Assembly (NCBI GenBank): GCA_951812955.1
Contig: OX638340.1
Coordinates: 64,001 to 128,000, forward strand
DNA: 64,000 nt
DNA from: an uncultured Gemmatimonadota bacterium
GTDB taxonomy: Bacteria > JAAXHH01
Direction of reading: 5' to 3'
In this document: positions 1 to 12,032 of the stretch, piece by piece
Layout of the letters: each line of letters opens with the position of its first letter
Position numbering within the stretch: the stretch's first letter is position 1
Position numbers and translations under genes: made by a program
Notes under the pieces: generated by a model
Seen by the model: the letters and a program-made list of their open reading frames with translations, nothing else
Told to the model about the DNA's origin: nothing
Database searches by the model: none

Positions 1-943
1 GGGAGGCGGCCGTTCGATCATCCTGAATGGCCATCTCGATACGGTCGGAGTCGACGGCATGGACGATCCGTTCCGACCGAGGGTCGAAGGCGGCAGAATG
101 TACGGCCGTGGCACAATCGACATGAAAGCGTCAATCGCCGCGATGATGGCCACTTTGGCCAGGGTGCGGAGAAACCCGTTGAGAGGGAACGTCGTCATGA
201 CGGCTGTCGCCGACGAAGAGGCCTACAGCGTCGGCACCACCGCCGTGCTGGACAGCGGCGTGACGGCTGATGCCGCCATCGTGACCGAACCCACAAGCGG
301 GGACGTCGTCGTCGCGCACAAGGGATTCTCATGGGCCGACGTCATCGCCCAGGGTCGCGCCGCCCATGGCTCCCTGCCGGCCGAGGGGCTCGATGCCATC
401 ACGAAGATGGGTGCGTTCCTTCAAGGGCTTGAAAATCTCCAGGCCGAATTGCATAAACACCCGGGTGATCCTATGCTCGGACCGGGTTCGGTTCATGCTT
501 CGACGATCAGCGGCGGCCGTGAAATGTCGAGTTATCCCGCGACCTGTCACCTCGGCGTGGAAAGGCGCACGATCCCGGGTGAGACCGCCCGGGACTTCAT
601 TGCGGAGCTGGAAGGAATCGCCGAACGGTGCCGCCAGGCCGATCCGGGTTTCCAGGCCGAGATCACTCTGACCTTCGATCGACAGCCATTTTCGATTGAG
701 GCAGATCATGAAATCGTCGAGCTGGTCAGGACGGTCGCTACGGAGACAACCGGTCGAGCGCCAGACATATGCGGGAAAGCCGGCTGGATGGATGCCGCGC
801 TGCTGAGCGAGCGCTCGATTCCGACCGTTATCTACGGTCCGGCAGGAGGCGACTTCCACGGGGATAACGAATGGGTGGACCTGGCGTCGATCGAAGTGTG
901 CGCCGATGTCCTCACAGATGTTGCCAGCGAGTTCTGTGCATGA
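1..943 (+). CDS. M20-family metallopeptidase/deacylase (ArgE/DapE-like), 5' end cut by window edge
   Basis: The frame is open from nt 2. The upstream in-frame peptide reads ...ILNGHLDTVGVDGMDDP, which is the M20 His-x-Asp metal-binding motif, ahead of the first in-window ATG at 59. The rest of the 294-aa ORF has M20-like acidic/His residues (VADEEAYS, VAHKGFSWA). Confidence 0.75.
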   Translation, partial: GGGRSIILNGHLDTVGVDGMDDPFRPRVEGGRMYGRGTIDMKASIAAMMATLARVRRNPLRGNVVMTAVADEEAYSVGTTAVLDSGVTADAAIVTEPTSGDVVVAHKGFSWADVIAQGRAAHGSLPAEGLDAITKMGAFLQGLENLQAELHKHPGDPMLGPGSVHASTISGGREMSSYPATCHLGVERRTIPGETARDFIAELEGIAERCRQADPGFQAEITLTFDRQPFSIEADHEIVELVRTVATETTGRAPDICGKAGWMDAALLSERSIPTVIYGPAGGDFHGDNEWVDLASIEVCADVLTDVASEFCA

Positions 944-972
944 CCGGGAGCCCGGGGCGCGATGCACGAACC

Positions 973-1092
973 ATATATCCAGATTAAACTCATCCAAAAA
1001 CATGGCGCCAAGATTCCGGGGTTTTATTGGGTACGGGTATGGTTCGGAACTGATCAGACTTGACAACAACTTAGTTCAGAGATTAAACTGAT
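973..1092. repeat. Pair of about 14-bp direct repeats (AGATTAAACTCATC / AGATTAAACTGATG) about 100 bp apart at the GC-drop boundary
   Basis: The repeats were read directly at about 975-988 and 1078-1091. They sit just after the M20 stop codon, where base composition becomes AT-richer. Confidence 0.3.
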
Positions 1093-1622
1093 GTACAAAT
1101 AACTTATAGAACGCGTCCAGGCCGTTCTCGCCTGGGCACTTGTATTTACACCGTAACAGGATCAGGCGGAACGATGATTCGGACGGTAAGACGCGGTATC
1201 GGTACGGTCGTGATTTGGTTGATCACAACGCTGGTTCGATTGGGGAAACGGTTAATGCGGAATCGGAAACGAGGCGTTGCCTAGCGGAGGATGTGGCGCG
1301 GGCAGCACGGTAGGCAACGAGGGTCGAACCGGAAATCGGATGACGATTGGCAAACGGCCGGTAGTAACGTTAATCACCGATACGATATGCCAGCCGGGGG
1401 GGTGGTACAATACCCGGCGGCGATACAATAGCCGACTACCACATCGAGTATGACTCGCGAGATGGGACCACAAAAGGCGGAAGGATTCGCCGGTTGTGGT
1501 TTTTTTTGTGCGTGGATCCCGGCTCGGTACCTTAGTCATCAAACAGCGTACTTATTCCGAGAACTATACCGATGCTTCCGCTCAATAGATATATAGTCGA
1601 CATACAAAACCATATTGAGACT

Positions 1623-2693
1623 CTATTGACGAGCATTCGTCAGGTCTTCCAATTCATCTTCTTTGTAGGTGGCAGGTACCCATTCACGCGACAGGTATGG
1701 CTTGTCAATTTCGTCCAACTGTAATGCATCACGGTACCATTTGGGTAGGCCAGCTGTCGGCGGATTATCTGGATGGTAAATCGGCCGGTTCCATTGCGGC
1801 ATGCCGACTTCCGGCCAATGATCCTTGTCGTACTTCATAGGATATACCCACCAGAGTCCCAAATTAGATTCAACCAGGAAAATCTCGTCAGGCAAATAAG
1901 TACGCCCAGCAAGTAGAGTTGGTAACTGGTTCCCGATGAGGTCGAATCTCGTATGAGCTGCGTCCTGGCTTTCTAAAACCAGGACGGTTCGTGCTCCATC
2001 AGCACGACACTTCGCCAACTTTGGAAACTTGTCAGCAAAAGCTCTACGGATCCGTTCCGTCCGACAGCTTTCCAAGTCTTCGGGATAGTCAAGTACCGTT
2101 TGAACAAAGCCCGGCTTTCGTCCTGCCTTAATCCCATTCCGCCACCTCAGCAATTCGACTGTACAGTTTATACACGAGAGATCGTCTTTGATGCTATCGT
2201 CGGGAAAACAGTAAAGGCTGATTGGGATTCCATGGCAGTCGATAGGTAAAGACAGTAAGGTATTCCTCTCGTACATGGTCTGGGCACTGCTTAGAATCCA
2301 TTCGGCAAGGTTCTTCAAAGCCCTAACTCGTTTGACTTTCCCCCTGGGCAGACAAACATCTGTTGGTACTTGAAGCACGTAGTACATGGGATCTGGTAAC
2401 TGGCCGGCGAGGCTTTGTATCAAGTACTGTCTAATCTCCACGACGGTTAACTCAGTTTTAATATTGTTCTCAAAGGGTTCAATTATTGTGTGCTCAATCG
2501 CGTATTCTTGTTCACCCAATTTCATACGCAATTCCACTGGCGGCCCTACTCGATCACTCTCAGGATGACGTATTTCAGATCGTTTCTTCCGAGTGCGTCT
2601 TTCCATAGTCTTCACAACCGCGTCGCACGCCTTGCCCTCGTTTTTAGGTACGATTACGTGCGGTTTACTGTATGGAGTCTCGTTATTCTTCAT
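1623..2693 (-). CDS. Hypothetical protein (356 aa), no recognisable domain; island gene
   Basis: Long ORF with AT-richer codon usage like its neighbours. I could not recognise any conserved motifs. Confidence 0.5.
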   Translation of the reverse strand: MKNNETPYSKPHVIVPKNEGKACDAVVKTMERRTRKKRSEIRHPESDRVGPPVELRMKLGEQEYAIEHTIIEPFENNIKTELTVVEIRQYLIQSLAGQLPDPMYYVLQVPTDVCLPRGKVKRVRALKNLAEWILSSAQTMYERNTLLSLPIDCHGIPISLYCFPDDSIKDDLSCINCTVELLRWRNGIKAGRKPGFVQTVLDYPEDLESCRTERIRRAFADKFPKLAKCRADGARTVLVLESQDAAHTRFDLIGNQLPTLLAGRTYLPDEIFLVESNLGLWWVYPMKYDKDHWPEVGMPQWNRPIYHPDNPPTAGLPKWYRDALQLDEIDKPYLSREWVPATYKEDELEDLTNARQ

Positions 2694-3149
2694 CGTTTCC
2701 TAATCTAAATGTAATTAACGGAAAATCGCTGTTGATGGCTGAGTCAGACCCTTTCACCAGTCTTCCGATCCGGTAGCCTTCTGTAGCCTTCTACTGATTA
2801 CAACTTCCAAACCTAATCCAGGAGCCATGCGCCTTGTGGAGATTGCCCCTCTGCAGTAGGGCGGCAGGTCACGAAAGAATCCGTGGACCACTCCAGTAAG
2901 ATTTCACGTAGCATCGCCTACTCGCCCTGACTGTCAAATGCAACCTAGCCATCGGTAACACCAAGCGTGATTCACTAAAGACGGTAAGCCCATGAAGTCT
3001 TCACGGTTCAAAGAAACTCCGAATTCCCTTATCTACGGGTTTTAAAGGGTTATGTAGGGGAGGTGTTGGCAACTGCTAATGGATGTTTCAGAGGGTGGGA
3101 ATGCGGTGTTGAGGCAACTCATAATAGTCCTGGTGATATCTAATCCCCA

Positions 3150-3635
3150 TCACAAGTTGTTTGTACGTCGGAGTAATTTGGATGATACCCAACTCCATGC
3201 TTTCCAAACAAACGAGGTTTTAGTTAGTAAGCCTTGCTCTTTATCAGTCTCCATACGGTCATCGGAGTTGAAAAACCGGTTGATTTCCAATCTATGGTTA
3301 CTTCGCTCCTCAAGAATCTCACGTGTAGACCATCGGCGTGACCAATGAACTTTGTTATTTTCGATCCAATAATGTGATTGACACTCCTCACTCCAATTTC
3401 CCACAGAGGGCCGGAGACTTATAGATAACCCATTGTAAATAAACGCCCACCCAGTGGGATGTAACGGTGTGTTTATCTCGCTACCACACCCACATGCACA
3501 TTTATGGATTACAGTACGGTACTTCAGCGAAATGTAAATTCGACCGTCTTCTAAACGGTTGGGTACAACATCCGAGAAGACCGGGGTAAATTCAGTCGTT
3601 TTTGAAGACCGTTCTAATCGTTTTGTTTTGCACAC
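3150..3635 (-). CDS. Cys-rich small protein (161 aa; CACGCGSE...LHPTG), possible Zn-binding or E2-like partner of the E1-like gene
   Basis: Its start overlaps the last 22 nt of the upstream E1-like gene, suggesting translational coupling. It has a CxCxC cluster followed by an HPT-G motif and a further Cys/His pair (ECQSH). The size is E2-like, but there is no canonical HPN-x8-Cys arrangement. Confidence 0.45.
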   Translation of the reverse strand: MCKTKRLERSSKTTEFTPVFSDVVPNRLEDGRIYISLKYRTVIHKCACGCGSEINTPLHPTGWAFIYNGLSISLRPSVGNWSEECQSHYWIENNKVHWSRRWSTREILEERSNHRLEINRFFNSDDRMETDKEQGLLTKTSFVWKAWSWVSSKLLRRTNNL

Positions 3636-4831
3636 TCGACGTAGTCCCGGTTTATTATCTTGTTTCCGTCCATTATATATCCGGAATCACCCTCATGAAC
3701 TAAGTCTTGAAATACACCTCGGATTTTCTTCCATTTTATTACTGCCAATGCTGCATTGAGGGCGTTTAGTTCTGCCAATTGTATGTTTCTTTCGTACTCT
3801 CCAACATCTCCTCCTGCCATATCGATACGATTCTTCTCTGTCACATGGCCCCTATTGCCCGGTTCACTAGTAGTCGTTCGGAGTATCCCGCCTAGTCTAT
3901 CTCCTTCACGATAAATCCCCATCCCGGTATCAATACAAACGCTCTCGGCATCTTCGCAAATCCTAAATATAGATTGTTTTATGGCATGGCCATCAATACA
4001 CAGGAAAACTGTATCGTGTCCTTTTAACTCATTAACGTTTTCCTCCACAATCTTAGTGGGATGTGCAACAATACCGCGACGCATACGACTGTAGCGTTCG
4101 AAATGAAACTCTGATTTGATGGGGCCTCCTTCCAATTCTTCAACCGCTACTGCTCCCGGTGCTCGAAATGAGTTGTGCTGAAGAAAACGGTCATCGTCAT
4201 ACAGATGGATCTCTTTAACCCATGTCTTAGCAACATAGTCGAGAACGTAAGCCCCGGTCCCACCTAAACCAACAATTGCTACAGTCTCCCCTTCCAATCT
4301 CGAAGATATATCTGTTGTATTTTGACGGGCTGACGCTGTTTCCATAAACGCGAATACATTCGAATTGCTCTCGGATTTCGCGACTTTCCACTTCTGCGCC
4401 GACGTTGACGAGTCGATTTTCCTAGCTTCTCGCGTTATGATTTCAATATAGGTTCTTACTTTGTGTTCATAATCTATGTACCGCCCGCCTTCCGGCTTGG
4501 CTGAAAACATATAGGTTAACTTTAGACCATTGCTCAGAATCTGGTTGTGGCCGCTTTCACCCAGAACCTCAAGCTTCTGTGAATTCCCGTCATACGGAAA
4601 TTCTCCTGTCCAATAGGCCACGTGGTCACCTGGTTGACTAGTTCTCTCGCCTCTGAGGTCAAGTTGCATTACTAATGTTGCCTCTGCAATTCCTCCAACA
4701 CTGGTAACATAAGGCACATCTTGTATTAGAAGGTAGCCATCTATAAATCGGATTGTATATCCGGATTCCTCTATGCGTTTCAGATCCGTATTACGAGCGA
4801 TCAGTGCGTGTGACATTGAATACTGTCCCAT
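3614..4831 (-). CDS. ThiF/MoeB/E1-like adenylyltransferase with an unrecognised ~170-aa N-terminal domain
   Basis: Residues ~175-405 show the Rossmann motif VAIVGLGGTGAYVLDYVAK, an acidic/Arg-finger segment YDDDRFLQHNSFR, a VFLCIDGHAIKQ segment, and downstream Cys residues (ICEDAESVCIDTG), as in E1/ThiF enzymes. The N-terminal 170 aa contain no Cys and match nothing I recognise. Confidence 0.7.
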   Translation of the reverse strand: MGQYSMSHALIARNTDLKRIEESGYTIRFIDGYLLIQDVPYVTSVGGIAEATLVMQLDLRGERTSQPGDHVAYWTGEFPYDGNSQKLEVLGESGHNQILSNGLKLTYMFSAKPEGGRYIDYEHKVRTYIEIITREARKIDSSTSAQKWKVAKSESNSNVFAFMETASARQNTTDISSRLEGETVAIVGLGGTGAYVLDYVAKTWVKEIHLYDDDRFLQHNSFRAPGAVAVEELEGGPIKSEFHFERYSRMRRGIVAHPTKIVEENVNELKGHDTVFLCIDGHAIKQSIFRICEDAESVCIDTGMGIYREGDRLGGILRTTTSEPGNRGHVTEKNRIDMAGGDVGEYERNIQLAELNALNAALAVIKWKKIRGVFQDLVHEGDSGYIMDGNKIINRDYVECAKQND

Positions 4832-5060
4832 CCTTTATCTTCACATTTTCGCCTTCGCTCAAACCACCTTCTTGTTCACGTCCACCACCTTCATAAAACA
4901 GCACTGTGTAACTAATTAAAGCGCCACGACCACCATCCGGGTAAGCTAAATCCACTATTTCGTCAAAAGTCACTTCGTCATGGTCTACGGTGTACGGACG
5001 TGCATTGATTATGATATCAAAACCCTTGTTCTCTAGACTTTGCTGAGGTTCTTTTTCCAT
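4791..5060 (-). CDS. Small beta-grasp/ubiquitin-like protein resembling prokaryotic 'multi-ubiquitin' domains (~89 aa)
   Basis: The segment FDIIINARPYTVDHDEVTFDEIVDLAYPD fits the xIxVNGxxxxVxxxxIsxxEIxxLA pattern of multi-ubiquitin (PF14452-type) beta-grasp domains. The start was chosen at the internal ATG (nt 5060), which is preceded by AAGGAGG 14 nt upstream. The longer ORF from 5147 lacks an RBS and would overlap the upstream gene by 58 nt. Confidence 0.5.
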   Translation of the reverse strand: MEKEPQQSLENKGFDIIINARPYTVDHDEVTFDEIVDLAYPDGGRGALISYTVLFYEGGGREQEGGLSEGENVKIKDGTVFNVTRTDRS

Positions 5061-5089
5061 ATTAATGGCTTCCGCCTCCTTATCGGGAT

Positions 5090-5629
5090 TCAGGCTATGT
5101 CCCTGATGCCCAATGTCAACCCTCCTGAGCGAACGAATTCCCTCCATAGAGGTGACAACAATTGAGCTGCAACTGGAGCTTCACGAGAAGAAAGTATAAT
5201 TTGTAATTCTCTCCTTTCATCTAAAGGTGCCTCTTTCCATATATTGTACAAATCCCAGCAGTTTCCGTCCGTCAAAATACCGTACCTTACCCCGACCTCA
5301 GTACAGTATGTCAACATCTGAGTGCGGTGTGTGTTGAGATCCTCGTTCAGTTTTTTTGCCTCGACTAGAACCAGTGGCTTTCTATCTTCTCCAAGTAATG
5401 CGTAGTCAACACGCTGATTCGCTTGATTTCCTGTACGGAATTCAACTTCTACATGCTCTACGATGCTAACGTCCCAAGCAAGGGCTTTCAATACCGGATC
5501 CACTAATACATTCCTTGTCCTTATCTCATTTTTCTGGAGGTATTCTCCGTGTTTTACTATTACCTCACGTGCTCGTTGTAGCGTGCTTACCAAGGGTTCT
5601 AACAAATCAGTCATAAACTCCCTCACCAC
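5090..5629 (-). CDS. PD-(D/E)xK restriction-endonuclease-fold protein (179 aa), candidate nuclease effector
   Basis: RVDYALLGEDRKPLVLVEAKK gives the D...(D/E)-x-K catalytic signature of the Mrr/PD-(D/E)xK nuclease fold. It is the first gene of the minus-strand operon that continues into the Ubl-like and E1-like genes. Confidence 0.5.
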   Translation of the reverse strand: MVREFMTDLLEPLVSTLQRAREVIVKHGEYLQKNEIRTRNVLVDPVLKALAWDVSIVEHVEVEFRTGNQANQRVDYALLGEDRKPLVLVEAKKLNEDLNTHRTQMLTYCTEVGVRYGILTDGNCWDLYNIWKEAPLDERRELQIILSSREAPVAAQLLSPLWREFVRSGGLTLGIRDIA

Positions 5630-5982
5630 TAAGTGAGCGATTCCCCAGTTGAACTTCTCTACTATAATATACGGCTAGCGGATCTGTACATATTACTTAA
5701 CGTATGATTCGTATGGAACTCTGTCAAATAGATTTCAACTTGAATACAATGTCATTGCTGAATAGATCGTAGCCATATCTCATCTACACCATTGAGTAGC
5801 ATATTGGATTACGCGCGGCGGTTTGGTAATATCGCGCATTCAGGTAGTTGGCGATGCACTTGGCACGCCGCACGGTCCCTGCAGATACGCCACAGAGCCA
5901 ACTCAGGCATGCACGAGTCATTTAACATCAGCCCTAGAAAATGCCCTTGACATCATATGATTTATGAGTCATGTTATGATGT

Positions 5983-6351
5983 ATGAAATGGGAAGTCGAT
6001 TTCCATCCGGCGTTTGATCCCGAGTTTGCCGCCATGGCACTGAAGGTGCAGGACGAACTGCTTACACAAGCAAAGCTCTTGGAGGAGTTCGGACCAACAT
6101 TAGGTCGTCCGCGGGTGGATACGCTAAATGGTTCGCGGCATGCTAATATGAAGGAACTTCGTTTTACTATGACTGGCGGAGTCTGGCGGGTCGCATTTGC
6201 TTTCGACCCCGAACGTAAGGCCATGCTACTGGTTGCCGGCGATAAATCGGGAGTCGGTGAACAACGGTTCTACCAGCAACTGATCAGGAAGGCGGATCAC
6301 CGCTTCGATCTACATCTTGAACTGTTGAAAGCTGAGAGGAGGCCAAGATGA
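5983..6351 (+). CDS. Type II toxin, RelE/ParE-superfamily (HigB/Gp49-like) killer protein
   Basis: A 122-aa protein with ...KELRFTMTGGVWRVAFAFDPERKAMLLVAGDKSG...RFY..., the typical HigB/Gp49 core. It is followed by an HTH antitoxin gene that overlaps it by 4 nt. Confidence 0.65.
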   Translation: MKWEVDFHPAFDPEFAAMALKVQDELLTQAKLLEEFGPTLGRPRVDTLNGSRHANMKELRFTMTGGVWRVAFAFDPERKAMLLVAGDKSGVGEQRFYQQLIRKADHRFDLHLELLKAERRPR

Positions 6352-6698
6352 GTACGTTGACGGACAGAATGGACAAGCTGTCCCCGTCCCGACGGAAGAA
6401 GGTAGAAGAACGGGCCAGGGCGTTGATCGCCGAAGAAATGTCGCTACGGGACTTGCGCAAGGCTCGAAAGCAGACGCAGATGCGGGTCGCCGAGAAGCTC
6501 GGGATCAATCAGGAAAACGTGTCCCGCCTTGAACAGCGCAGTGATCTCTTGATTTCCACCCTCAGCGGCTATGTCGAGGCGATGGGGGGTAAACTGAGTC
6601 TGGTGGCGGAGTTTCCGGACCGGCCGCCAGTGGCGCTGACTGGCATTGCGGCACTCGACGACCTTTTGGAGCGGCCTGCAGAATCTCGTACCGGATGA
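6348..6698 (+). CDS. XRE-family helix-turn-helix antitoxin (HigA-like)
   Basis: A 116-aa protein with an HTH segment (LRKARKQTQMRVAEKLGINQENVSRLEQ). The toxin-then-antitoxin order matches HigBA. Confidence 0.65.
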   Translation: MSTLTDRMDKLSPSRRKKVEERARALIAEEMSLRDLRKARKQTQMRVAEKLGINQENVSRLEQRSDLLISTLSGYVEAMGGKLSLVAEFPDRPPVALTGIAALDDLLERPAESRTG

Positions 6699-6964
6699 AG
6701 AGAGGATCGCGATATGGTCGCAGGCGGGTCGCTAAACGTCGAAAACACACCGGTTCCCGGGTGTCGCGAATCTCAGATTTGGGATATATAACTACAGTGA
6801 GGCGGGACCGGCCTTGGCCTTAGTGGCAAAACGCCTACGATCGATCAGTTCGCATTCCACGCTTGTGAAGATTCTCTTGCACAGCACGTTGTCATAGTAG
6901 TCGTTTACCGAGCCCATAGATGGCCAGATGCCAGCCGTGCAAACCGGTGCCCGTCGGAGCGAAC

Positions 6965-8140
6965 TCATCCACTAGGCGTTCGTCCACCGACCTCCGTCGA
7001 GATTTGTAGAATATACATCAGTGACGGATCGGATTTGAGGAGAATGGCCCGCAGCTGTTCGTCGGTTAGCTTTGTCTCCAATTCGTGGACCCGGTTGAAA
7101 AACTCGATCAGCTTCACCAGTGCTTTGGTGTCTTGGATCACGAATTCAGACAGCGGATCGTTGTACAACTCCCGACAGACGTACAGTACCCTCGCTCGAC
7201 GGGTTGGCTTGCCCTCATGTAGCAGATCCTTCTGATTAGCTAGGCTCAGAATCCATGCAGTAACTAGATCGTCGGGGGCTAATCGTCGGAGCAAATGGTT
7301 CCACAGCTCCCTGAGGGAGGTCAGAATGTGCCGTGCCCGGTCGGCACTGTTTCCATTCAGGGCATCTCGAGCGCCGATGTATGGCCCAGCGAGACTTGGA
7401 TCGACCTGTTGCAGCAGAATGATGCAGTCGGATGTTTCTAACTCTGCCTCGGCGACAAACTGGAATTCCGTTTCGGCCTCTTCTTCGTCCCGTTCACCCC
7501 AGGGGCGAAGAGTTTTGAGCGCGAAGCTGGTAGTGTAGATTTCACGAGTGGCGCCTGGCAAAACGAAAGCAGGTAAGCGCGTAATGTCCGAGACCTCCCG
7601 CAGTGAACCGGCCAAACTTCCATATGAGGCAGCCACCTGGGCAATCGAACTCTCCAGCCCTGAAATGGCGGGCATCTTGATTTGGAATTGACTCCCTATG
7701 GCCTTGAAATCGATGTTCGCCATGAGTCGTTCCGTGGCGATCAATTGCAAAGAAGTATCGCCCAGGGCCAACTTAGCGGATGCTTGAAGCTGGAAAAGTT
7801 GGGAAACTCCCTGTTGAAGAAGATTCGACTGGTCAAGCCAGGATTCATGAGTGGTATGCAGACTCTCGGCAATCCAGTTAGAAGCGGTAGTCTGTTTGAT
7901 CACATCATGCCAGTGTTGATTGGCGTTGGCGATCTCTTTAATCCCGGCCACTGCTTCAGGTATTTCGAGGGCACGACTGATTTCCATTTGATGGAGACGG
8001 AATGGTTCTATCGTGCGTTCTAACTGTTCTATAACGCCTAGGTAGGATGGCTTGGCCAAACGGTTGGAAGCCTCCATGTCCTGACGGAGTTTGCCGATGG
8101 CGGATTTTGCGGACATCAGATCTTCGGAGAGAATATCCAT
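6965..8140 (-). CDS. Hypothetical protein (391 aa), no recognisable domain; island gene
   Basis: Long ORF in the AT-richer island, between the TA pair and HerA. No motifs recognised. Confidence 0.5.
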   Translation of the reverse strand: MDILSEDLMSAKSAIGKLRQDMEASNRLAKPSYLGVIEQLERTIEPFRLHQMEISRALEIPEAVAGIKEIANANQHWHDVIKQTTASNWIAESLHTTHESWLDQSNLLQQGVSQLFQLQASAKLALGDTSLQLIATERLMANIDFKAIGSQFQIKMPAISGLESSIAQVAASYGSLAGSLREVSDITRLPAFVLPGATREIYTTSFALKTLRPWGERDEEEAETEFQFVAEAELETSDCIILLQQVDPSLAGPYIGARDALNGNSADRARHILTSLRELWNHLLRRLAPDDLVTAWILSLANQKDLLHEGKPTRRARVLYVCRELYNDPLSEFVIQDTKALVKLIEFFNRVHELETKLTDEQLRAILLKSDPSLMYILQISTEVGGRTPSG

Positions 8141-8223
8141 ATTTTGATGTTAGTCCCGGAGTTGTCAAATTGCAAGGCTGTGTGGATGTTTGGGTATGCT
8201 GGTACCTTCAACCTCAATTGAAA

Positions 8224-9915
8224 TCATCGGCGCTGATATCTCCAACGCTTAACAACATCTTGAATTTCCGAGTCAGGAGTTGCATCGTTTTGCCACCCCT
8301 TATCGAAGTCAATGTCATTTGATTTCGGTAGCTGATCAGGATTTAAATCACGTATTAGGATGCGCGACGGCAACATTGCAGCTTGGCCAACGAAAATTGC
8401 CTCTTGCCTCCGTAAACCAGAAAGCATCTTTGTCAGACCAGACATCGAATCTGGTAGAATGGATCGAACATGCTCCCTGTCGGCGTCATTGGTGATTCGC
8501 ATAACAATCCAGCTATTGCATTGTGAAAGAACCGTTGCCTCAACTTCGCTTGGGCGCTGGGATACCAACAGGAGCCCTACACCATACTTTCGACCTTCCT
8601 TAGCAACACGCCTGATTGCTTCTTGAGCAGCCTCATATTGCGCTTCGCCCCGATTTGGAACGTAGCGATGAGCTTCTTCACATACCAGTAAAACTGGGTC
8701 AGATTCGCGCTCTGATTGGGTTTGCCAAATCTTCAGATTGAATAAAGTTCGAGCAATTACCGCACTTGATACACCGGCTACTTCATTGGGGACACCGGAC
8801 AGATCTACTATTCTTGGTTGAGACCCATCCCCGATAAGTTGCTTGATAACAGTAAGAAAAGGATCGTTATTTTCCCATTCTGACATCATGAATCGGAGTC
8901 GAGCATCGGTCATTAAGACTTCGAGTTTTTGGAGTATCGAGTTATGAGAATCTTGTTTGCTGAGCGCAGTTGGCTTATCCGCTTCAATCTTTTCTATAAG
9001 CCTCGATAACTTGTATGGTACGGGGGAATCAACAGTTATGAGATTGACATCAAGACCTAGCTGATGCGCACCTTCTTCGCGGGCGTAGATTAAGGCTCTC
9101 TTTACGATGTTAGCTTGTGAGGTCGCAACAAATTCAGTTCTTCCGATCAACAAGGCAACCGTCTCTTGAAAGTTCAAGAGCCAGTATGGAAGTGTTAGTG
9201 TTCCGTCATCAGAGGAAAGTTTAGTATGATCAGTAAATGCGCTGCCGTATTCACCATGGGGGTCGAGTATAATAACCCTGGGCTTCCATTTCGTATATGA
9301 TCTAGTGTCACCTCTATCAAGAATACTGTGAATGATAGCTGCGACCGTACCTGACTTGCCAGCGCCAGTGGAGCCGAGAACGGCTGTGTGTTTACCAAGT
9401 AGTTCATTCAAATCTGCAAAACATGGGGTCCCGCCTGAACCTACATGCTGCCCGAGCTGAACAACGGCACTTTTCGCTTTCCCGTAAATAAAACGCAATT
9501 CAGCTTTTGGAGTCAGATAGACAGTTTGCTGTGGGAGTGGATAGGTTGATACCCCACGTTCAAAAAAAAGCTTCCATTCACTAGATGTCCCATGAATCCA
9601 TTCGCCTTCGCCGAACAGGTCTGCTTCGACGATTCTTTCATCCGAAGATGATGCTGACACCAATCCTCGTTCTGCTTGAAATTCTGATTTCATCCTTAGT
9701 CGGCCGACCAACGCGTAGACGGTTTGACGCCCGAAATGGACTTTGACAATGGAACCAAATTGTCCGATGGGATAGGTTTCTCCCGCATACACACGCGAGA
9801 GTTCAGAAAGAGTCGGATTTAACTCGGCAACAAGGTGAGATCCATCAACTTCAATTATCTTGCCGATTGCCAGATTCTCAATTGGCTCATTGGGATTGCG
9901 AGTCGAAACACTCAT
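8224..9915 (-). CDS. HerA/FtsK-like (DUF87) ATPase, partner of SIR2 (SIR2-HerA defence system)
   Basis: Walker A is LGSTGAGKSGTVAAII and Walker B/DEAH-like is LLVCEEAHRY. The 563-aa size and the 4-nt overlap with the upstream SIR2 gene match the SIR2-HerA arrangement. Confidence 0.75.
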   Translation of the reverse strand: MSVSTRNPNEPIENLAIGKIIEVDGSHLVAELNPTLSELSRVYAGETYPIGQFGSIVKVHFGRQTVYALVGRLRMKSEFQAERGLVSASSSDERIVEADLFGEGEWIHGTSSEWKLFFERGVSTYPLPQQTVYLTPKAELRFIYGKAKSAVVQLGQHVGSGGTPCFADLNELLGKHTAVLGSTGAGKSGTVAAIIHSILDRGDTRSYTKWKPRVIILDPHGEYGSAFTDHTKLSSDDGTLTLPYWLLNFQETVALLIGRTEFVATSQANIVKRALIYAREEGAHQLGLDVNLITVDSPVPYKLSRLIEKIEADKPTALSKQDSHNSILQKLEVLMTDARLRFMMSEWENNDPFLTVIKQLIGDGSQPRIVDLSGVPNEVAGVSSAVIARTLFNLKIWQTQSERESDPVLLVCEEAHRYVPNRGEAQYEAAQEAIRRVAKEGRKYGVGLLLVSQRPSEVEATVLSQCNSWIVMRITNDADREHVRSILPDSMSGLTKMLSGLRRQEAIFVGQAAMLPSRILIRDLNPDQLPKSNDIDFDKGWQNDATPDSEIQDVVKRWRYQRR

Positions 9916-11072
9916 CTTTCACCTCCAAGCAGGCGGGTCAAGTTTTCAAATTTCCACCAAAGTAGGTCGGTGTCGGATGGTGCTTTTTTGCTGCCGTGAA
10001 AGAAGCCAAGATTAGCAAAAATAAGTACTTGCTCGGTTATGGAGTCATCATCATGCCATCTCTTAAGTAGGCCTTTTGGTTCATCATCAGAGGTAAACAC
10101 CACGACGGTAAGACGACCGTCAGATTCACGTAACGCCCGGTCGATTTCGAGATTGATGTGTGAATCACCAAAGCGGTACCCGCACGTAATCAGTATTTTT
10201 TGCGAACCTGAAACAGCCGTTAGTGCTTTCCGCCCATATTCTGCCAATTGAGCATAGGGGTCTCTTTGAGTTTCACGGTATTTGGTGGATGCTGGCCAAA
10301 TGAGAATCTTGTTTTTACCCCCGGATTGTACTTTGACATTACCGGAAACTCGGCGAGGGAGTGGATCACCATCGAACTCGCACCAGTTTATTGAACCGTG
10401 CAGTTTGAAGATCCTCGACGAGAGTCCATCACGCTCAAAATCCGCAGGATTCCACCATCCGGTGACTCCGCCTTCCAGACCATCTGAAAAGGAAACTCGC
10501 TCAAGCGCGAGTGCATCTTCAAGAAGCGTGTCGTAGTTGAGGCAGAGATAGTCCACACGATCAAAGTTGCCCGTTTTACCAGGCCGAATTGGGCGATGAA
10601 CCGCCTTTACGAATTTGCGATGAACCACTACATCGATTTGCTCGTCATTGTGCTCGATTATATTGGAAATGATACGCTTTATATCTTCTGCAGATTCCCT
10701 TAGTTGCTGGCCAGAATATCGATTGTCTTTGATAGTGATCTGGTCATCGGTTGCGCCTCGCTCCGCCCTTCTTTCAGCGATGGCCAGAAGGTCGATTATT
10801 TCACTAAGGTAGTCCTCAATATCTGGATCACTCGCACCGGTGAAACCTTCCTTAATTCCCTTGAGGATCTCTGTGGTATAGTCACTCAAAGCACCTATTT
10901 CCAGTACTTTAGTAGTTAGTTCTTCCATCAATGGTAAACCCGCGCATTTGCTACAACCTGCACCAATTAGGAACACTTTCCCATGCTGGACCATAAGTTC
11001 GTCTAGCGTATCATAAGCTTCAACTAATTGAGGGGTATCCCATATTGCGTCAAGATTGTCAGGTGCGCTCAT
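9912..11072 (-). CDS. SIR2-family (NAD+-consuming) protein of a SIR2-HerA defence pair
   Basis: The NAD-binding GAGxS motif is VFLIGAGCSKCAGLP. The catalytic Asn/Asp is LCLNYDTLLED and the catalytic His is KLHGSINW. The protein is 386 aa and sits immediately upstream of HerA, overlapping it. Confidence 0.75.
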   Translation of the reverse strand: MSAPDNLDAIWDTPQLVEAYDTLDELMVQHGKVFLIGAGCSKCAGLPLMEELTTKVLEIGALSDYTTEILKGIKEGFTGASDPDIEDYLSEIIDLLAIAERRAERGATDDQITIKDNRYSGQQLRESAEDIKRIISNIIEHNDEQIDVVVHRKFVKAVHRPIRPGKTGNFDRVDYLCLNYDTLLEDALALERVSFSDGLEGGVTGWWNPADFERDGLSSRIFKLHGSINWCEFDGDPLPRRVSGNVKVQSGGKNKILIWPASTKYRETQRDPYAQLAEYGRKALTAVSGSQKILITCGYRFGDSHINLEIDRALRESDGRLTVVVFTSDDEPKGLLKRWHDDDSITEQVLIFANLGFFHGSKKAPSDTDLLWWKFENLTRLLGGER

Positions 11073-11340
11073 ATTAACCCTTTCTCATTTTATCATACTC
11101 CAATTTCCTGACTTCATTGCTATTCATGTGTCGCTATGCCATTAACTTCAACAACACGTCGTCTAGACCAAACCGATCATTCAAGGATTTAGCTATCCGA
11201 ACGAGTTTCGGACTTGGTCCGGAGTAAATAGAGAATCAGTCGCCCAAAGTGAGAGAATGTGTGACGGACAGGGAAAATCGACGATGTGGAACGGTTGTTC
11301 GAGAGGACATTAACAGACGCAATCTCTTAGAAACAAGTGC

Positions 11341-11389
11341 AAAAAACCCGTCATCCCCGAGAATGAGCCAGACCCTAGAGAGACGGGTT
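11341..11389 (-). terminator. Hairpin plus U-run terminator just 3' of ssrA (bidirectional hairpin)
   Basis: An 8-bp stem AACCCGTC (11345-11352) pairs with GACGGGTT (11382-11389) across a roughly 29-nt loop. On the minus strand it is followed by TTTTTT (plus-strand A6 at 11341-11346). On the plus strand it is followed by TCTTTTT. Confidence 0.4.
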
Positions 11390-11402
11390 GTCTTTTTAGA
11401 AT

Positions 11403-11766
11403 TGATGGAGGTGGGGGGAATCGAACCCCCGTCCGAAAGTGCCTAAGCGGAAACTTCTACATGCGTAGCCTGTTGTTTAATCTCGTTCCGGAGAACTCCA
11501 GCAGGCAGGATTTAACCGGAACCAGCCTCAGTTGAGTCTCGCCTGGCGCCCTGAGGCGCGACGCCCGGCCAGCCTGCTTTATCGACGCTTTTGACCATCC
11601 CGCAGGCGGGGCTGATCAAAAACGGGCCGGCCTAAGTTACCTTAGGCAGCCATTGCATACGAAGGTTCGTCTGCAGATAAATTGTTCCCAATGGTTTTAC
11701 GAGGTTATCGGGGACCTCGGCACGCGATTCCCGCCGCATCCACTCCCGTCGAATCCTTTCACCCCC
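11403..11766 (-). ncRNA. ssrA: tmRNA (ssrA)
   Basis: The reverse complement begins GGGGGTGAAAGGATTCGACGGG... and ends ...GGACGGGGGTTCGATTCCCCCCACCTCCA. This gives a tRNA-like acceptor stem with a G3:U70 wobble (the Ala identity element) and a T-arm. The internal frame ...GCA GAC GAA CCT TCG TAT GCA ATG GCT GCC TAA (ADEPSYAMAA-stop) is followed by a helix-5-like GCCTAAG/CTTAGGC stem. CCA is not encoded. Confidence 0.85.
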
Positions 11767-11775
11767 ATGTCAAAG

Positions 11776-11804
11776 AACATAGGCCATTTGGGCGCTTCTG
11801 TCAA
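11776..11804 (-). promoter_or_regulatory. Sigma-70-type promoter for ssrA (TTGACA-N17-TATGTT)
   Basis: On the minus strand, TTGACA (11799-11804), a 17-nt spacer and TATGTT (11776-11781) are read. The -10 element ends 9 nt before the mature tmRNA G1. Confidence 0.5.
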
Positions 11805-11880
11805 ATTCGCCCGGCCGCGATGGTTCGGTTGCATCATGATACGGCAGCACCATGGTACGGCTGCATCGCGGTTTGGCCAG

Positions 11881-11953
<73 letters not shown>

Positions 11954-11959
11954 ATTCCA

Positions 11960-12032
11960 TGAGCGCGGAAGGAATCGAACCTTCGACCCACAGATTAAAA
12001 GTCTGTTGCTCTGCCAACTGAGCTACGCGCCC
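11960..12032 (-). tRNA. tRNA-Lys (anticodon UUU)
   Basis: The reverse complement is GGGCGCGTAGCTCAGTTGGCAGAGCAACAGACTTTTAATCTGTGGGTCGAAGGTTCGATTCCTTCCGCGCTCA. It has a cloverleaf with anticodon loop CTTTTAA. Confidence 0.85.

Follow-up and report, generated by a model that had tools for sequence, protein, structure and literature searches.

A cysteine-free N-terminal domain in a Gemmatimonadota E1-like protein is very probably the E2 half of a Type II BubBD fusion

What kind of domain precedes the ThiF core of an E1-like protein when it contains no cysteine at all? This question is raised by a 64,000-nt stretch of contig OX638340.1 (assembly GCA_951812955.1) from an uncultured Gemmatimonadota bacterium, hereafter the window, within which all coordinates are given. 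On its minus strand, an open reading frame (ORF; 3614..4831) encodes a 405-aa E1-like protein, in which a preliminary description had noticed a Cys-free N-terminal domain of ~170 residues and considered it to be of unknown type. We find that this domain is Pfam DUF6791 and that the gene is very probably (at an estimated probability of about 0.88) bubBD of a Type II Bub operon, its N-terminal domain being a BubB-type E2 with a diverged UBC fold. Bub stands for bacterial ubiquitination-like, and the operons of this name were earlier called 6E or DUF6527 (Ye, Gong, Chambers and Corbett 2024, bioRxiv 10.1101/2024.11.21.623953). Those of Type II encode a ubiquitin-like protein (Ubl; BubA), an E2 fused to an E1 (BubBD) and a protein with DUF6527 (BubE), usually without a JAB peptidase (Ye et al. 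2024).

Several lines of evidence led to this assignment. In Pfam, the protein matches DUF6791 over residues 16-165 (E 1.4e-41) and ThiF over residues 177-304, with residues numbered here and throughout from the ATG at 4831. The full protein matches the NCBIfam full-length model PRK06153.1-4 (NF004805) with 434 bits against a cut-off of 352, and the combination of DUF6791 and ThiF in ~395-400 aa recurs in more than 5,100 database proteins; the N-terminal domain alone, used as the query, retrieved 752 cluster representatives at 50% identity. The gene lies between a Multi_ubiq gene and a DUF6527 gene (Table 1), all three on the minus strand and overlapping or abutting, and no JAB/JAMM domain was found among the eight neighbouring proteins scanned. 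This gene set without a JAB peptidase therefore represents the Type II Bub arrangement. The closest characterised counterpart is BubBD of E. coli ZDHYS365 (WP_063617865.1; formerly among the 6E.2 or DUF6527 operons), whose sequence we took from Table S2 of the paper, machine-read from the PDF. The two proteins have the same fusion architecture and length and align end to end, collinear from residue 1, at 36% identity (E 1e-78). Of 80 genome loci, drawn from many bacterial phyla and some archaeal ones, 77-79 have the trio bubA-bubBD-bubE, which also occurs on 128 plasmids. In the literature, the name DUF6791 returned no paper; it was the name DUF6527 that pointed to the work on Bub.

The N-terminal domain is a distinct unit, as had been described, and the Cys-free stretch in fact reaches residue 277, the only cysteines of the ORF being C278, C292, C299 and C400. 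At the cysteine frequency of long ORFs in the window (1.0%), the chance of finding none is ~0.18 for 170 aa and ~0.06 for 277 aa. The absence of cysteine alone is not statistically remarkable, and it takes its meaning from the E2/E1 context only. The Rossmann motifs quoted in the preliminary description, GLGGTGAY and YDDDRF..HNSFR, were found in the translation at residues 188-195 and 211-223. In an AlphaFold2 model of residues 6-175, the mean predicted local distance difference test score (pLDDT) was 84, and as far as model residue 140 most blocks of 10 residues scored above 90. In this model, two short helices, a beta-meander with a hairpin, and a long helix precede a disordered linker. The domain is hence predicted to be mainly beta-sheet with one long helix, in a UBC-like layout, which rules out a mere N-terminal helical extension of ThiF. 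With BubB of the Type I system (Citrobacter sp. RHBSTW-00271; PDB 9eav chain D, 9eae), it shares 11% identity and no detectable sequence-profile relation: aligning the domain profile to Citrobacter BubB with hhalign yielded a probability of 1%, and a hidden Markov model (HMM) profile of the domain found nothing among PDB sequences, even at E 10. The kinship of Type I and Type II BubB is at the level of the fold only.

We assessed residue conservation in two sets, one of 121 close relatives and one of 75 diverse relatives at ~30-50% identity. The preliminary description had proposed aligning homologues to look for a conserved catalytic residue; Ser110 is kept in all 121 close and in 73 of the 75 diverse relatives, the remaining two having Cys; no column of invariant Cys was seen among the 75. 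The neighbouring Lys112 is Lys in 114 and Arg in 7 of the close relatives, and Lys in 70 and Arg in 3 of the diverse ones. This pattern is in line with what has been reported for Bub E2s, where an invariant Ser occupies the structural position of the E2 Cys (S333 in Citrobacter BubB, S106 in E. coli BubBD), accompanied by an invariant Lys and His in Type II BubB and by His and Asp in Type I (Ye et al. 2024). The text of the paper allows its 'invariant histidine' to be either His70, which is fully conserved here (Table 1), or His123, which is present in 120/121 close and 26/75 diverse relatives.

The E1 half tells the same family story, its best PDB match being Citrobacter BubCD both by sequence and in Foldseek (E 5e-8). 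Its Arg223 aligns with the arginine of QQHNSFR in E. coli BubBD (R219) and, in BubCD, with the arginine that corresponds to R227. A crossover-loop Tyr is invariant in Bub E1s (Y370 or Y342; Ye et al. 2024), and Tyr346 aligns at the position of E. coli Y342, where the machine-read sequence shows V. In the AlphaFold model, this Tyr stands at the end of a low-confidence loop (residues 305-350) that is presumably flexible, and the crossover-loop region holds no Cys (residues 300-352). The mutations S106A, R219A and Y342F in E. coli BubBD each abolished the BubA conjugate, whereas the in vitro product was still formed when K108 was mutated (Ye et al. 2024). Because Ser110, Arg223 and Tyr346 are conserved and the equivalent E. 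coli mutants lose conjugation, the best reading of our analysis is that the N-terminal domain would be an active E2 working through oxyester intermediates, and not an inactive ubiquitin E2 variant (UEV).

The preliminary description had named an inactive UEV-like E2 among its options; the relation to E2s is borne out, while the presumed inactivity conflicts with the correspondence of Ser110 to S106. Spelled out, the alternative would be an inert, UEV-like pseudo-E2 that merely docks BubA or the target, with direct transfer from the E1 (as acyl-adenylate or Tyr ester) to a target lysine and with a structural or positioning role for the Ser. UEV domains such as TSG101, VPS37A and MMS2 are indeed Cys-less E2 variants, but they have no conserved nucleophile, whereas Ser110 is near-invariant. 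Moreover, both exceptions carry the classical E2 nucleophile, Cys, in the same column, as would be expected of a nucleophile position. S106A in E. coli BubBD as well as S333A and H335A in Citrobacter BubB abolish conjugation, and crystal structures juxtapose the E1 Tyr with the BubB Ser (Ye et al. 2024). We consequently regard an inert domain as unlikely. The two Cys-bearing sequences (cluster representatives P0192 and P0269, with LCSKP and LCNMP in place of the Ser motif) would, judging from their sequences, be natural variants or reversions of thioester type in a family that uses oxyesters.

Several points weigh against an active BubB-type E2. With the model of the N-terminal domain, Foldseek returned no significant PDB match. 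The oxyester intermediates of the type systems were themselves deduced mainly from mutants and structures (Ye et al. 2024), and the machine-read E. coli sequence contains errors, among them the V at the Tyr position and a numbering drift of 1-2 residues. Furthermore, the literature shows no anti-phage protection yet for any Bub operon.

The present analysis establishes domain identity and fold, the make-up of the operon and the conservation of the residues; the mechanism is transferred from the E. coli and Citrobacter systems, the only ones for which ATP-dependent Ubl conjugation has been shown (Ye et al. 2024), with all chemistry and the direction of transfer assigned by homology. By this analogy, the ThiF-like domain would bind BubA and adenylate its C-terminal residue with ATP, with Arg223 in the active site. 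Attack on the acyl-adenylate by Tyr346, on the flexible crossover loop, would then form a BubA~Tyr oxyester, from which BubA would move on to the E2 domain, forming a BubA~Ser oxyester at Ser110, with Lys112 and an invariant His close by. BubA would finally be handed to a lysine of the target, and the conjugates would be removed by BubE, acting as a Zn-stabilised Ser-His peptidase.

Other known systems with E1-like proteins fit the locus less well. Type I Bub operons make BubB as a fusion with the Ubl (BubAB), and a JAB peptidase that is itself fused to the E1 releases it, whereas here BubB is fused to the E1; consistent with this difference, we found no JAB match, a UBC-like N-terminal domain and a stand-alone BubA of 89 aa. 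The premise of the preliminary description that Type I BubCD contains a Cys-dependent E2 is incorrect: BubCD is a fusion of JAB peptidase and E1, and Bub E2s use the invariant Ser and no catalytic Cys (Ye et al. 2024). Cap2 of the cyclic-oligonucleotide-based antiphage signalling system (CBASS; PDB 7to3), to which the 6A-MBL/Pycsar ligases are related, differs in having catalytic cysteines, in conjugating a CD-NTase and not a Ubl, and in being paired with a JAB peptidase, Cap3. Here the E2 domain has no Cys, and neither a CD-NTase nor a JAB gene was seen among the scanned neighbours, so that type II CBASS does not describe the locus. PADLOC (2023) has no Bub model and returned only weak Cap2-type 'E1-E2' matches on the Rossmann region, covering E1-domain residues (at most ~132-296) at E 1e-6 or weaker.

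It has also been suggested that the domain is a target-recognition domain or something new. Such a non-E2 recognition or regulatory module would sit on a ThiF-type enzyme making a non-protein product, as in MccB, TcdA or ThiF. The fold neighbours of the E1 half do include these three, and sequence profiles detect no E2 in the N-terminal domain; our results otherwise lend this idea no support, and we consider it very improbable.

The start of bubBD bears on whether the domain is made at all. It is most likely Met6 (nt 4816) and not the ATG at 4831, since nearly all BubBD homologues open with MSHALIARN, with alignments collinear from Met6, and since the bubA stop lies exactly 25 nt past the Met6 start in 80 of 80 related loci. 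Counted from Met6, Ser110 is Ser105. The N-terminal domain is translated from either start, and only the first five codons are doubtful. That its ~170 residues are an untranslated annotation artefact with the true start downstream is a negligible prospect: the ATG at 4831 does overlap bubA by 41 nt with an AAGGA immediately abutting it, but the more than 5,100 homologues with both domains, their collinearity from Met6 and the confident fold of the domain stand against this.

Table 1. Features of the Bub locus in the window (all on the minus strand; residues numbered from the ATG at 4831 for bubBD)
Feature	Coordinates	Strand	Details
bubBD, E2-E1 fusion gene	3614..4816	-	400 aa from Met6; upstream ATG at 4831
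BubB-type E2-like (UBC-fold) domain, Cys-free, predicted	4382..4816	-	ORF residues 6-150
Linker, predicted disordered	4307..4381	-	Residues 151-175; pLDDT <50 in both AlphaFold models
BubD-type E1 adenylation domain (ThiF/MoeB/UBA5-like)	3617..4306	-	Residues 176-405; Pfam ThiF
His70 codon, invariant E2-domain histidine	4622..4624	-	121/121 close, 75/75 diverse relatives
Ser110 codon, putative catalytic serine	4502..4504	-	Motif MFSAKP; aligns with E. coli BubBD S106
Lys112 codon, lysine accompanying Ser110	4496..4498	-	Aligns with E. coli K108
Arg223 codon, adenylation-site arginine	4163..4165	-	HNSFR; 121/121 close, 75/75 diverse relatives
Tyr346 codon, crossover-loop tyrosine, putative E1 catalytic residue	3794..3796	-	GEYERN; 120/121 close, 72/75 diverse relatives
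bubA, single beta-grasp Ubl	4791..5060	-	89 aa from Met30 of ORF 4791..5147; Pfam Multi_ubiq; ends TRTDRS
bubE, DUF6527 serine peptidase	3150..3635	-	Pfam DUF6527 E 1e-22; C46/C48/C50/C85 zinc site; S77/H88 dyad
HSDR_N-like PD-(D/E)XK gene	5090..5629	-	179 aa; D75, E90-x-K92; Pfam HSDR_N and HSDR_N_2

The remaining genes of the operon resemble their E. coli ZDHYS365 counterparts, with which the locus shares the flanking genes, the positions of Ser and Lys in the E2 and of Arg and Tyr in the E1, the TD[KR]S end of BubA, the C4 site and Ser/His pair of BubE, the lack of a JAB peptidase and the location at an RNA gene, within a mobile or defence island. For bubA, the start is likely Met30 of its ORF (nt 5060), judging from the AAGGAGG that precedes it and from the 89-aa product called in three close relatives (L081-L083; L labels denote related genome loci). 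The product matches the third beta-grasp of E. coli BubA (PDB 9cd2) to the C-terminus, with TDRS here and TDKS there; E. coli BubA differs in having three beta-grasp domains instead of one. All BubA homologues end on Ser (T-D/N-K/R/Q-S), as opposed to the Gly typical of ubiquitin-like proteins, and the bubA/bubBD overlap (4791-4816) is exactly 26 nt in 80 of the 80 loci with a bubA match. The defining features of BubE are its C4 zinc site and Ser-His dyad (Ye et al. 2024). Across the CxCxC...PS..C..H block, the protein encoded here shares 52% identity with its E. coli counterpart, and C46, C48, C50, C85, S77 and H88 align with both the E. coli and the Citrobacter protein.

The E2 domain does differ from its E. 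coli relative in one respect. Column 80 holds the Cys of an 'xPC' motif in 51 of the 75 diverse relatives, E. coli BubBD included, whereas it is Tyr80 here (codon 4592-4594, minus strand) and Tyr or His throughout the present clade. The 'xPC' Cys follows beta-strand 4, ~30 residues before the Ser and approximately where canonical E2s have the HPN motif; we found no mention of it in the accessible text of the Bub paper. A fully Cys-free E2 domain, as here, occurs in only 10 of the 75 diverse relatives.

A further difference from the E. coli operon is the extra gene upstream of bubA, which encodes a PD-(D/E)XK protein (Table 1). A gene of this kind (~175 aa) lies directly upstream of bubA in the window and in four related loci (L001 5230-5724, L081 1943-2458, L082 2098-2619 and L083 4200-4760); two more distant Bub operons (L020 7680-8204 and L027 7706-8080) have it immediately downstream of bubE. 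It is always co-oriented with the Bub operon, and of the 80 genome loci as a whole only 3 have it. The operon table of the Bub paper has no column for it, and a search of the supplements turned up none of the words 'nuclease', 'HSDR' and 'restriction'. By gene order, it appears to be a clade-specific fourth gene of the operon, whose product may serve as an accessory effector or be a target of conjugation. We also entertained a bolder version, in which the clade forms a distinct four-gene Type II Bub variant, with a PD-(D/E)XK nuclease as effector or target controlled by BubA ligation and with an E2 devoid of the 'xPC' Cys; this we regard as a doubtful, tentative proposal. An ORF of 356 aa at 1623-2693 (minus strand), inside the same island and without a Pfam, NCBIfam or PADLOC match, was considered as an operon member and rejected, as it had no family matches and no homologue in the 80 genome loci.

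The Bub operon is contained in a low-GC segment (~45-49%, or ~45-54% in the GC profile of positions 1-12000, versus ~62% for the genome) at ~1.1-11.3 kb, bordered by two tRNA-Lys genes and the gene of a tmRNA with the tag EPSYAMAA (11406-12032, minus strand); the segment looks like a genomic island inserted at ssrA. Among the other genes on the minus strand, a SIR2 (9912-11072; PADLOC E 1.7e-68) and HerA (8224-9915; E 1.6e-138) pair constitutes, by these sequence matches, a predicted SIR2-HerA defence system in the same island. A 391-aa protein (6965-8140, minus strand) ends in a pP_pnuc_1 domain (predicted pPIWI-associated nuclease; E 1e-20), and no Argonaute or pPIWI gene was evident among the ORFs listed beside it. 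On the plus strand, divergent from the Bub operon, a Gp49/HigB-like gene (5983-6351) and a helix-turn-helix (HTH) gene (6348-6698) overlap by 4 nt. They are probably a toxin-antitoxin pair, and not regulators of the CapH/CapP or CapW kinds that frequently accompany Bub operons; in this, too, the locus differs from that of E. coli, as no CapW or CapH/CapP regulator is adjacent here and the Gp49/HTH pair stands in their place. In one of the close relatives (L083), an HTH-Peptidase_M78 gene lies upstream. Bub operons have been reported from mobile or defence loci, and an island with SIR2-HerA, a pPIWI-nuclease-like gene and a Gp49/HTH pair agrees with this setting. Given this defence island beside tmRNA, the biological role of the operon is probably defence or stress response.

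The protein is a further member of a family characterised recently, in 2024-25, and the Cys-free oxyester chemistry of that family has already been published; the locus provides one more Bub example, in a defence island at tmRNA. Comparison across relatives also brought out regularities of the family, namely the C-terminal Ser of BubA, the constant bubA/bubBD overlap and the rare Ser-to-Cys variants. A naturally Cys-free E2 domain supports the view that Cys is dispensable, and should the 'xPC' Cys prove to be functional in other Bub E2s, for instance at the HPN position, the present clade would represent a natural, fully cysteine-independent chemistry. The PD-(D/E)XK partner could, in turn, help to identify the targets or effectors of Bub systems.
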